Shown piece after piece: positions 2,604-6,414 of a stretch of DNA of 64,000 nucleotides. Under the pieces are notes generated by a model. The model had not been told where the DNA came from. It saw only the letters and a program-made list of their open reading frames with translations, and ran no database searches. Origin of the DNA: Promethearchaeia archaeon (GTDB lineage Archaea > Asgardarchaeota > Lokiarchaeia > Sigyniarchaeales > SOKP01); assembly GCA_029856125.1 (NCBI GenBank), contig JAHQWJ010000139.1:1-64000 (forward strand), written 5' to 3'. Numbering within the stretch: position 1 is the stretch's first letter; every line of letters begins with the position of its first letter. Made by a program: the position numbers and the translations under genes.

Positions 2604-3107
2604 TTAAATCATTCTTTTCTTCGCATAATTAACTAAGCCACCATCAGAAATTATTTCCTGGAGGAAAACTGGTTGTTTTTTAACTGTATAATGGTGTAGT
2701 GAAGTTGTATTATTGATTATCCCTAATTTTAAATCGATCTCTAGCACATCTCCTATTTTTATATCATCAATATTAGATAATTTTACTATTTGTAAGCCAA
2801 TGTTTATAGAATTTCTAAAAAAAATCCTGGCAAATGAAGGTGCGATAATGCATTTTATCCCACTAGCTTTTAGTGCTAAAGGAGCTTGTTCTCTACTTGA
2901 TCCACAACCAAAATTTGAATTCGCAACTAGGATAGAATAATTATATTCATTAACTTTTTTAATAAAATCGCGATCTAAATCCTCCATACAGTGCTGTGCT
3001 AAATAATTCTTATCTGAATTTATTAAATATCTAGCGGGAATTATTAGATCAGTATTTATGTTTTTTATATTATACTTAATTACTTTTCCAATCATTTGTA
3101 ATCTCAC
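2604..3107 (-). CDS. leuD: 3-isopropylmalate dehydratase small subunit (likely start ATG 3095)
   Basis: NTDLIIPARYL, NFGCGSSREQAP, SFARIFFRN motifs; directly downstream of the large subunit. Confidence 0.9.
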   Translation of the reverse strand: MRLQMIGKVIKYNIKNINTDLIIPARYLINSDKNYLAQHCMEDLDRDFIKKVNEYNYSILVANSNFGCGSSREQAPLALKASGIKCIIAPSFARIFFRNSINIGLQIVKLSNIDDIKIGDVLEIDLKLGIINNTTSLHHYTVKKQPVFLQEIISDGGLVNYAKKRMI

Positions 3108-3115
3108 CCTTTTTC

Positions 3116-4390
3116 TTATAAATTTTCTGGGGAAGTAATATACCCTTTTATCGCTGAAGCAGCTGCAACTGCAGGGCTGGATAAAAAAACCTCGCTATTA
3201 ACATGCCCCATTCTCCCTTGGAAGTTTCTATTTGTTGTGGACAACGCCTTCTCTCCTTCGGCTAAGACGCCCATATGGCCTCCTAAACAAGGTCCGCAAG
3301 TAGGGGTTGAGACTATAGCACCAGCATTAACAAAACTTTCAATATATCCTCTTTCCATCGCTTTTAGATATATATTTTGTGTTCCTGGTATTATTATACA
3401 TCTTAGTTTTTTATTGATTTTACGATTTTTAAGAATTTTCGCAGCATTTCTTAAATCGGCAAGCCGACCATTTGTACACGATCCTATGACTACTTGATCT
3501 AATTCTATTTTCATACCGTGCACTTCTGAAATGGATTTCACATTATCAGGTGAATGAGGAAGGGCAATCTGTGGTTCTATCTTAGCACATTCAATATCAA
3601 TAATATCGTAATATTCAGCATCTTTATCACTACTATAAAAACCATCTTTCGATATCTTTAAAGAATCCAAATATGATCTGGTTAGAGTATCAGGTTCAAT
3701 GATTCCACTTTTTCCGCCAGCTTCTATAGCCATATTACACATAGTAAACCGATCTTCTATAGGTAAACCTTTTATCGAATCACCTGTAAATTCCATAGCT
3801 TTGTATGTGGCTCCATCTACGCCAATTTTTCCTATTGTATATAATATCAAGTCTTTTCCAGAAACCCATTCATTTAATCTACCCGAATAAATGAACCTAA
3901 TAGATTCGGGGATTTTAAGCCAACATTTTCCTAACGCCATTGCTACCCCTAAATCTGTAGATCCAACTCCCGTTGCAAACGCCCCAAGTGCTCCATAAGT
4001 GCATGTATGTGAATCAGCCCCTATAAAAACTTCTCCTGGTTTCACCAATCCTTGTTCAGGTACAAGACAATGTTCAATGCCTCCTCTTCCAACCTCAAAA
4101 TAGTTAGTAATATTATGTCTGGTAGCAAAATCTCTAAGGACTTTACACTGAGTAGCAGAAGCCACGTCCTTATTTGGAGTAAAATGGTCAGGGATTAGAA
4201 TGATTTTAGAAGGATCAAAAACTTCTGCTTTAGAATCTTCTGTCACTTTTTCAAATACTTCTATGGCTATGGGCGCAGTAATATCGTTGGCCAAACATTT
4301 ATCGATATTGGCCATAATAAAATCACCAGCAACGGCTTTTTTATTTTGGCAATGGTCTCTAAGAATTTTCTCAGTAATTGTTAAACCCAT
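3116..4390 (-). CDS. leuC: 3-isopropylmalate dehydratase large subunit (aconitase family)
   Basis: GADSHTCTYGA, IGSCTNGR, CGPCLG, STTNRNF motifs. Confidence 0.92.
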   Translation of the reverse strand: MGLTITEKILRDHCQNKKAVAGDFIMANIDKCLANDITAPIAIEVFEKVTEDSKAEVFDPSKIILIPDHFTPNKDVASATQCKVLRDFATRHNITNYFEVGRGGIEHCLVPEQGLVKPGEVFIGADSHTCTYGALGAFATGVGSTDLGVAMALGKCWLKIPESIRFIYSGRLNEWVSGKDLILYTIGKIGVDGATYKAMEFTGDSIKGLPIEDRFTMCNMAIEAGGKSGIIEPDTLTRSYLDSLKISKDGFYSSDKDAEYYDIIDIECAKIEPQIALPHSPDNVKSISEVHGMKIELDQVVIGSCTNGRLADLRNAAKILKNRKINKKLRCIIIPGTQNIYLKAMERGYIESFVNAGAIVSTPTCGPCLGGHMGVLAEGEKALSTTNRNFQGRMGHVNSEVFLSSPAVAAASAIKGYITSPENL

Positions 4391-4422: not shown

Positions 4423-6042
4423 TCATTTCATTTCAGCATTTTTTTTCTTAACTATAAGATTCAAACCTTTTACAAGAGCTAAAACCGAGCACATTACAAT
4501 ATCTTCATGAGTAGCACTTGCTTTAACTATGAGATTACTTTCAATGTCCATAATTTCGATAGCCACATGTCCTAATGCTTCAGTTCCTCCAGTAATCGCG
4601 TCAATTTGGAAGTTTAAAAGCTTAATGTTACTCATGGGTTTAAAACATTTAACAATAGCATTGACTGACGCATCTACTGGACCAACTCCTATTGAGGAAG
4701 CGACTTTTTCTACGAAATCTCCATTTCTTATTTTTAAACGCACAGTTGATGTAGGGGTTATGGAACCAGTCAAAACTGTTAATTCTTCAAGAATGACGTA
4801 TTGTTCTTCTTCGGGTATTTCTCCCATAACATCCTTAACAATTGCTAAAAAATCTTCTTCAGAAACCTCATGTCCTTTATCTCCAAAATCTTTAATATGA
4901 TTCATTATTTTACCGAATTCTTTGTCATTCGTATTAATTCCAAGATCTCCCAATTTTGCTTTTAACGCATGTCCACCACTATGTTTCCCAAATTTAATTG
5001 ATTCCTTAAGAATATCCATAACACTGTCAGATCTGCTTATTCCAATTAACTTAGGAGTGATAGGTTCGTAGGTTCGCGCGTTTTTAATCATGGCGTGGGC
5101 GTGAATGCCTGCTTCGTGAGCAAATGCGTTTTGCCCTATCAAAGGTTGGAGGCGTCCTATCCTAACTTTACCACCACAATAACTTTCGATGAGTTTCGCA
5201 GTGGGAAATATTTTTTGCGTGATGATATTCATAGGTAATTGATACAGAGCATAGAGTGACATTGCTGTTTCTTCAAAGGAAGCATTGCCAGCTCGTTCTC
5301 CTAAACCCATAATTGTAGTTTGTGCTTCCGAGGCTCCATTTTCGAATCCCGCAATAGTGTTTGCGACAGCGAGTCCAAAATCGTTATGACAGTGTACTGC
5401 TATTCTAATGTCACTTGGAATTGCTTTATATACATTATTTACCATATATCCGAACGCTTTTGGCGAGATGGTACCTACAGTATCAGGAATGTTAATTCTC
5501 GTTGCTCCGCTCTCAATTGCATTTAAATTTGCTTTAATTAAGAAATCCAAATCAGTACGAGTTGCATCTTCAGCAGAGAATAATACTGTCGAGTAATGCT
5601 CTTTAGCATAAGAAACATATTTATCAATTTGCTCTATTACTTCATCGCGACTCATTTGAAGTTTAGATTTAAGATGTAAGTCTGATGTAGCAATAAAAAG
5701 GTGAATACTATCCATATCCGCTTCAATAACTTTATCTATATCAATTTTTGCCATCCTCGCTAGTCCCATCACTTCAGAATCTAATCCTAATTTAGCTATG
5801 GATTTACACGCTTCAAAATCGCCTATAGAAGTAACTGGAAATCCCGCTTCAATTACATCAATTTTCATATCATTTAGTGTTTGTGCAATAGATATTTTCT
5901 CTTTGTGAGTAAAACTTATACCGGGGGTTTGTTCACCATCACGAAGCGTTGTATCGAAAAAATAAGCTTTATCCGGAAGACTAAGTGAGTCTCTTATTTC
6001 CCCCATTATTTGCGAAACACTTACATTACTGTTTTTTTCCAT
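4423..6042 (-). CDS. leuA: 2-isopropylmalate synthase with C-terminal regulatory domain
   Basis: DTTLRDGEQ, HCHNDFG, GLGERAGN and C-terminal GVGPVDA; operon with leuCD; the Leu-rich leader favours LeuA over CimA/AksA. Confidence 0.85.
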   Translation of the reverse strand: MEKNSNVSVSQIMGEIRDSLSLPDKAYFFDTTLRDGEQTPGISFTHKEKISIAQTLNDMKIDVIEAGFPVTSIGDFEACKSIAKLGLDSEVMGLARMAKIDIDKVIEADMDSIHLFIATSDLHLKSKLQMSRDEVIEQIDKYVSYAKEHYSTVLFSAEDATRTDLDFLIKANLNAIESGATRINIPDTVGTISPKAFGYMVNNVYKAIPSDIRIAVHCHNDFGLAVANTIAGFENGASEAQTTIMGLGERAGNASFEETAMSLYALYQLPMNIITQKIFPTAKLIESYCGGKVRIGRLQPLIGQNAFAHEAGIHAHAMIKNARTYEPITPKLIGISRSDSVMDILKESIKFGKHSGGHALKAKLGDLGINTNDKEFGKIMNHIKDFGDKGHEVSEEDFLAIVKDVMGEIPEEEQYVILEELTVLTGSITPTSTVRLKIRNGDFVEKVASSIGVGPVDASVNAIVKCFKPMSNIKLLNFQIDAITGGTEALGHVAIEIMDIESNLIVKASATHEDIVMCSVLALVKGLNLIVKKKNAEMK

Positions 6043-6074
6043 TTTTCTTTACCTATATTAAATTGATCGTTTTT

Positions 6075-6135
6075 TATACAACCCCCCCTAAAGAGAAAGA
6101 TATCTCCTTCCTTCTAATAGAAGAGAGGGGTATTA
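6075..6135 (-). promoter_or_regulatory. Structured leader segment between the leader stop and leuA (candidate attenuator structure)
   Basis: Minus strand ACCCCTCT can pair with GGGGGGGT; internal hairpins CTTCT-ATT-AGAAG and GAAGGA-GATA-TCTTTC; alternative pairing CCCCTCTCTTCT/AGAAGGAAGGAG. Confidence 0.55.
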
Positions 6136-6231
6136 TAGTAATAATAAGAGAAGATTTAATAATAATAAAAAGGGATAAAATTGCTTAAATGAATTCCTAG
6201 ATTCAATTCTAGTCGTTTTTTGAAGCAGCAT
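6133..6231 (-). CDS. Putative leu operon leader peptide, 32 aa: MLLQKTTRIESRNSFKQFYPFLLLLNLLLLLL
   Basis: Hand-translated ATG CTG CTT ... TTA TTA TTA TTA AAT CTT CTC TTA TTA TTA CTA TAA; 12/32 Leu, 10 of the last 11 codons; same strand as leuA, 90 nt upstream. Confidence 0.8.
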   Translation of the reverse strand: MLLQKTTRIESRNSFKQFYPFLLLLNLLLLLL

Positions 6232-6280
6232 TACTTTTAAATCCCTTTAATTATGTATTAAAAAGTGAATTATAGGACAC

Positions 6281-6288
6281 TTATAAAA
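6281..6288 (-). promoter_or_regulatory. Candidate TATA box for the leader-leu transcript
   Basis: TTTTATAA on the minus strand about 50 nt upstream of the leader ATG; AT-rich background lowers specificity. Confidence 0.35.
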
Positions 6289-6414
6289 CTTGCCAAAAGC
6301 AATAGGTGTAAGTACTAATATCTACATGAACCTTTATATTATCTAACATCAAAAATGAAATCATAAAATAGACTTTAATTTTAACTAACAAGCAAGATTA
6401 GATTTTTTAGGATT

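Follow-up and report, generated by a model that had tools for sequence, protein, structure and literature searches.

A leucine-codon leader uORF before leuA in Lokiarchaeia and a candidate ribosome-gauged regulon of amino-acid genes

Introduction

Upstream open reading frames (uORFs) link amino-acid status to downstream genes in eukaryotes, where control of GCN4/ATF4 and of CPA1, the latter with its arginine attenuator peptide, relies on scanning combined with either phosphorylation of eIF2-alpha or a sequence-specific arrest peptide. The leader of E. coli tnaC is Rho-dependent and has free Trp as its signal. Bacterial attenuators (E. coli leuL, ilvL, trpL and pheM-pheST, and a predicted one at Streptomyces leuS, PMC1262725) have, ahead of biosynthetic or synthetase genes, a short uORF that contains cognate codons, and the Rho-dependent leader of Salmonella corA (PMC13675443) has no intrinsic terminator. 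Cognate runs also end the uORFs of the actinobacterial LEU element (PMC1262725) and the mycobacterial poly-Cys leaderless sORFs (bioRxiv 10.1101/834739), located before leuA or cys genes. Leader-codon mutations in Streptomyces showed a behaviour unlike classical attenuation (PMC1262725), which we take as a warning against inferring mechanism from sequence.

For archaea, a paper from 2021 stated that neither attenuation of transcription nor antitermination was known (PMC8448881), and our search of later literature, which reached a minority of the subscription journals, found no published report of an archaeal leader-peptide attenuator. An initial annotation of the present locus had called such control barely documented in archaea. 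Three archaeal Ribo-seq papers report uORFs, none of them, in the text examined, with a leader-attenuation function.

Results

The leader uORF and the leu operon

The window (the whole stretch of 64,000 nucleotides that was analysed) encodes on its minus strand a leu operon with the order leuA-leuC-leuD, preceded by a promoter-like region and a Leu-rich uORF, as follows.

6281..6294 (-), BRE and TATA-like box, corresponding to a family-wide motif peak about 65 nt 5' of the uORF start
6241..6256 (-), 5' UTR including the uORF Shine-Dalgarno (SD) motif (AAAGGGA, 6248-6242) and the 5' arm of stem P0
6133..6231 (-), leader uORF of 32 codons with an ATG start
6136..6168 (-), Leu control codons, 10 of 11 Leu; a covarying partner was searched for and none was found
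6049..6055 (-), leuA SD (TAGGTAA), 3' of an A-rich spacer; compared with the 16S 3' end, and sequestered by no covarying stem
4423..6042 (-), leuA, 2-isopropylmalate synthase, 539 aa (NCBIfam PRK00915.1-2 above cut-off)
3116..4390 (-), leuC (TIGR02083 above cut-off)
2604..3107 (-), leuD (TIGR02087 above cut-off)

The initial annotation had described a Leu-rich ORF from 6231 to 6133 that ends 90 nt before leuA behind a TATA-like box, with four synonymous codons at 10 of the last 11 positions and a residue that matches the downstream pathway. All these elements are present in the sequence: the codon count gave seven TTA and one each of CTT, CTC and CTA, the stop lies 90 nt from the leuA ATG (6042), and the three leu genes were assigned by the NCBIfam and TIGR profiles listed above, the best solved relatives of LeuA being isopropylmalate synthases. 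As in a classical attenuator, a uORF with initiation signals and a cognate run thus precedes the first gene of the pathway. Transcription is predicted to start near 6258-6256 (-), and the DNA 5' of about -30 showed no covariation with the leader.

When the 3,595 intergenic uORFs of the genome were ranked by single-residue enrichment, that at 6231-6133 came first (p 2e-7), and only two of them presented at least eight Leu in the last 12 codons. An eight-Leu run on contig C56 (9816-9878, L088), in a short ORF before a 386-aa gene, is probably due to chance. Elsewhere in this genome, a leuB-like gene lies separately on contig C8 and a second LeuD-like gene on contig C111.

Conservation of the leuA leader

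Loci of leuA were gathered from genomes and metagenomes, and the close relatives of LeuA came mostly from Promethearchaeota (the Lokiarchaeia of the Asgard archaea). This collection yielded 75 distinct leaders from Promethearchaeota, with LeuA identities of 64-100% and 6-11 Leu in the last 12 codons. Within the LeuA family of the window the leader was found at every locus with intact upstream DNA, and four loci of a second family also have it. At each single one of the final five positions, 66-73 of the 75 leaders have Leu, and all six Leu codons occur; within Promethearchaeota, the search for conserved Leu runs with synonymous variation suggested in the initial annotation gave a positive result. 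The N-terminal part of the uORF is free to diverge, its length is kept at 30-39 codons, and alternative frames are open across the first 20 codons in just 10 of 114 cases. An SD motif is located 5' of the uORF in 56 of 57 leaders, a count made slightly circular by the choice of start codons partly on SD strength, and 5' of leuA in 53 of 57; these motifs point to SD-led initiation of both reading frames.

TTA is favoured in the leaders, where it represents 68% of the Leu codons against 45% genome-wide, and uninterrupted TTA stretches usually extend over 2-4 codons at most. The claim that the run is not a TTA microsatellite is upheld by the use of all six codons and the shortness of the pure runs, with the nuance of this TTA preference.

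No Leu run before leuA was present in five more distant LeuA families or in one genome of the second family, and neither a Leu nor an Ile run was seen at 20 LeuA-family loci from other Asgard classes. A LeuA tree built without a bacterial outgroup placed the leader-bearing genes as one group nested within the Asgard sequences. Among the Asgard classes sampled, the leaders were found only in part of Lokiarchaeia.

Other arrangements were noted at individual leuA loci. Three distant families (L121-L127) show an SD-led uORF of 8-12 codons before leuA with an invariant GTT CTC (Val-Leu) pair, possibly a single-codon or arrest-peptide variant, and L014 has a Val/Leu-rich uORF of 19 codons. The leuA upstream regions of L120 and L009 contain assembly gaps, with about five tandem repeats of 30 nt in the former and a duplicated start region in the latter.

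Leaders before leuS, cimA and trpB2

Leu-ending uORFs were also found before the archaeal-type leuS, at 33 distinct loci from four genera, including genomes in which no leuA was found. Ile-rich uORFs precede the TIGR00977 citramalate synthase gene (cimA), which encodes a LeuA paralogue of isoleucine synthesis, at 17 of 18 loci of the family; these leaders (L262-L281, L308) end in IIGII, and a hairpin whose loop is U-rich comes after them. In addition, a uORF with at least two Trp was detected before trpB2 at 19 of 30 loci, with up to six Trp in relatives and a motif similar to WRWQWPWRW. One relative genome (G049) carries leuA, cimA and trpB2 leaders together. The genome of the window has no such Ile-leader cimA, and carries the following two leaders.

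Contig C126, 25752-25844 (L087:753-845) (+), leuS leader, Leu-ending and apparently leaderless
Contig C84, 51687-51758 (L211:488-559) (+), trpB2 leader with two Trp

Since the residue of the leader follows the downstream gene (Leu at leuA and leuS, Ile at cimA, Trp at trpB2), codon identity appears to be what selection acts on, and this residue switching is the strongest argument for such selection. The proposed extension of the cognate-leader search to other pathways held for Trp and Ile; it gave no leader for his and ilvD. In nearly all of 30 loci hisG lies inside its operon, and in this genome no His-rich uORF precedes the first his gene. Likewise, no cognate leader was seen before the other identified synthetases, the bacterial-type leuS, ilvD or the leuB-like gene.

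Several observations in this genome accompany these leaders. A second, bacterial-type leucyl-tRNA synthetase is encoded on contig C94 (20467-23262 (-), L212) without a Leu leader, which is restricted to the archaeal-type copy. A leuS-type leader with an Ile/Val end (nhmmer E 3e-21) precedes an FrhB-like Fe-S gene on contig C129 (2979-3065 (+), L209:480-566), and an Ile/Val-rich leader is found in four other genomes as well. Contig C123 contains tandem leuS-type leaders (10889-10797 and about 11530-11440 (-), L210), each before a small ORF of 57-68 aa, and one of the two ends in seven Val and three Leu. Finally, only weak matches to ilvC were obtained, and ileS was not found by BLAST.

RNA anatomy of the leaders

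The RNA of the leuA leader contains a stem, P0, in front of and within the Leu run and a long hairpin, P1, after the stop, with the following parts.

6159..6176 (-), P0 3' arm, covering the last codons ahead of the Leu run and the first ones within it
6119..6130 (-), segment 1, pyrimidine-rich P1 5' arm, covered by the front of a ribosome that stands on the stop codon
6103..6115 (-), segment 2, alternative partner of segment 3 (inner stem) and, with weaker pairing, of segment 1
6090..6100 (-), segment 3, U/C tract of the inner stem
6082..6089 (-), segment 4, G-rich P1 3' arm, with no U-tail after it

P0 pairs the 5' UTR and uORF SD with codons about 50-33 nt before the uORF end, hiding this SD; its own arms reached -12.5 kcal/mol, compared with -7.8 for swapped arms, and among sister pairs 17 were better and 7 worse. 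In each of the 58 non-redundant leaders P1 begins 0-7 nt 3' of the stop, with a mean z of -3.3. Out of 28 segment pairs, the own partner exceeded those of other species only in P0, 1:4 and 2:3 and, weakly, in 1:2 and 1:3, the 1:3 signal being read as a segment-1 window that overlaps the inner stem. When arms were swapped between sisters (28 pairs), P0, 1:4 and 2:3 held up, as did 1:2 weakly, this alternative gaining -0.5 to -0.8 kcal/mol over swapped arms. These arm-swap tests rely on fixed windows, and kinship is partly controlled through the sister pairs.

A 3:4 terminator received no support from covariation (-2.9 for own and -3.1 for swapped arms), and the 8 nt after P1 contain 3.3 U. None of the tested segments covaried with the region of the leuA SD. 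For the 58 leuA post-stop regions, aligned by MAFFT, RNAalifold yielded no consensus structure, as their arms do not align in register, and a scan with the Rfam covariance models at gathering score, Leu_leader included, returned only chance matches with E above 1.5. The leuS leader is a different RNA, with a post-stop arm that has two covarying partners (H1 and H2), the distal of which, H2, was not significant in sister pairs (p 0.11). U/C tracts lie 3' of the stop in the leuS, cimA and trpB2 leaders.

Proposed mechanism and alternative outputs

Taken as a whole, the leaders of Promethearchaeota are very probably sites at which the ribosome gauges amino-acid supply, and for the leuA leader we are confident that a Leu sensor based on the ribosome is the right reading. 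From the arrangement described above we infer translation of the uORF, stalling, and the sign of control. A ribosome would load on the nascent RNA at the uORF SD, and P0 would then close over this SD, so that the leader would be read about once per transcript; a stem that hides the SD would fit a decision taken once, during transcription. When Leu-tRNA is plentiful, the ribosome would get to the stop, prevent segment 1 from joining the post-stop stems and depart, leaving U-rich Leu codons and U/C tracts bare behind RNA polymerase, where aCPSF1 (FttA) would load, cut and terminate ahead of leuA. With scarce Leu-tRNA, the ribosome would stall on the Leu run and shield the U-rich RNA, the post-stop stems would fold, and the polymerase would pass the short A-rich spacer into leuA, a scheme resembling that of tna.

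Going by bacterial footprint sizes, when the stop codon occupies the A site the ribosome reaches 6-8 nt beyond it, and here these nucleotides would include the base of P1 and of 1:2. A stall at least three codons upstream of the stop would leave this base uncovered, and a ribosome on the first Leu codons would cover the P0 3' arm. A stalled ribosome would also uncouple translation from transcription, and the sign of the proposed control would rest on shielding and on folding kinetics.

The output step through aCPSF1 is a conjecture, the simplest one because neither an intrinsic terminator nor SD pairing was found. The genome encodes aCPSF1, the leader Leu codons are 53% U, with TTA and ATT over-used, and aCPSF1/FttA, which favours U-rich stretches in the last 36 nt of an RNA, has been proposed as a competitor of the ribosome (PMC11616081). 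Against loading of aCPSF1, U-runs of at least 5 are rare in the leuA leader itself (at most 7 of 58 per segment). The whole mechanism, with the Leu gauge and factor-dependent premature termination by aCPSF1/FttA, seems to us evenly poised between right and wrong.

The same sensor might act instead on the translation of leuA, if the stalled ribosome freed the leuA initiation region, on the pattern of the mycobacterial poly-Cys leaders or the actinobacterial LEU element, or if P1 looped out the intervening spacer so that the ribosome could be handed over. In line with this output, the energy computed for opening the start region of leuA is 4.9 kcal/mol without a ribosome and drops to 2.3-2.9 kcal/mol when one sits on the early Leu codons, and P1 mostly ends 33-45 nt before the leuA start. 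We nevertheless consider it unlikely, as the Leu run pairs equally well with the leuA start region and with the start regions of random genes (-7.0 vs -7.0), no segment covaries with the leuA start region, P0 would restrict repeated translation of the leader, and hand-over at the stop would give the wrong sign.

A little less probable still is an output driven by structure, in which the 1:2 or the 1:4/2:3 fold (H1 or H2 in leuS) would decide either intrinsic termination aided by a hairpin or the cleavage and decay of the completed mRNA. The covariation of competing helices in both leaders (1:2 and 1:4 in leuA, H1 and H2 in leuS) speaks for such a switch, but the 3:4 pairing without covariation, the few U after P1 and the sister-pair result for leuS H2 all speak against it.

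A translated and conserved uORF could also function without codon-based sensing of Leu-tRNA, either through the peptide itself (membrane anchor, nascent-chain arrest) or through a regulator bound to the leader. This we judge improbable, even with a basic N-terminus ahead of a hydrophobic C-terminus, the conserved length and the Streptomyces precedent (PMC1262725), given that the leader residue changes with the end product of the gene and that the composition of the last 12 codons (74% Leu, 5% Ile/Val/Phe/Met/Ala and 21% polar breaks) differs from that of the 2,248 membrane-like windows of the genome (18.5% Leu and 51% Ile/Val/Phe/Met/Ala, none with at least 8 Leu in 12). A TTA microsatellite or a chance ORF in AT-rich DNA, to which the TTA share and 27 (TTA)4+ arrays elsewhere in the genome might have pointed, is refuted by conservation, with the first rank of the uORF, frame, start, SD and stop kept across 75 loci, an excess of synonymous over non-synonymous pairwise differences within the final six codons (3,150 vs 2,269), and, in co-occurring strains, indels of 3 nt inside the uORF (2/2) and of 1-2 nt outside it (4/4).

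Two further candidates were rejected: a small membrane protein with a mixed aliphatic helix tolerating Ile, Val and Phe, as the Leu run nearly excludes other aliphatics and has polar interruptions, and a frameshift or read-through fusion to leuA, as spacer lengths are distributed evenly over the three classes modulo 3 and an open leuA frame extends back to the uORF in no more than 2 of 58 leaders.

Discussion

In its widest form, our proposal for part of Lokiarchaeia is a regulon gauged by the ribosome for Leu, Ile, Trp and probably Val, with premature termination by aCPSF1/FttA as its output and an anatomy of its own, which would be the first archaeal transcription attenuation; we hold it tentatively. 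The leaders are defined objects with which to ask whether archaea regulate genes by transcription-translation coupling, and on which the proposed competition between ribosome and FttA (PMC11616081) can be tested. If the aCPSF1 output is true, the terminator would be a relative of eukaryotic CPSF73. In addition, the leader residue serves to annotate genes, telling LeuA from CimA and tying the FrhB-like gene and the small ORFs to Ile/Val supply.

Eukaryotic uORF control likewise connects amino-acid status with a downstream gene, and the initial annotation had seen in the leuA leader a link between it and bacterial attenuation. This bridge was not borne out: unlike eukaryotic uORFs, the leaders appear SD-led or leaderless, use cognate codons and were found only in part of Lokiarchaeia, no such run being seen at the 20 LeuA-family loci of other Asgard classes.

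The LEU element and the poly-Cys sORFs share with the present leaders the terminal cognate run and the occurrence of several independent leaders, which here would form a ribosome-run regulon, and the leuS-type and cimA leaders also look leaderless. The pairing of control codons with the downstream SD that defines those bacterial systems was not found here, and SD sequestration at leuA was discarded.

The likeness to bacterial attenuators lies in the short cognate-codon uORF before biosynthetic or synthetase genes and in RNA stems placed where the position of the ribosome counts. In contrast to them, the control codons here reach the stop and every downstream stem lies 3' of it, there is no 3:4 terminator, U-tail or Rfam match, an SD-hiding stem lies within the uORF, and polymerase and promoter are archaeal. 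The initial interpretation thus stood as to a cognate-residue leader peptide in an Asgard archaeon, with residues that switch across genes, and fell as to a terminator anatomy of the leuL/ilvL type. Judged by its sequence, the leuA leader is a system that would work like bacterial leader-peptide control yet falls outside the classical attenuator, the Rfam Leu_leader and the SD-sequestering classes.

The closest working analogy would be with Rho-dependent leaders such as that of Salmonella corA (PMC13675443), which also have no intrinsic terminator and in which the ribosome or the RNA fold could gate a termination factor. In the archaeal leaders this factor would be aCPSF1/FttA, and the signal would be hungry cognate codons, rather than free Trp or Mg2+.
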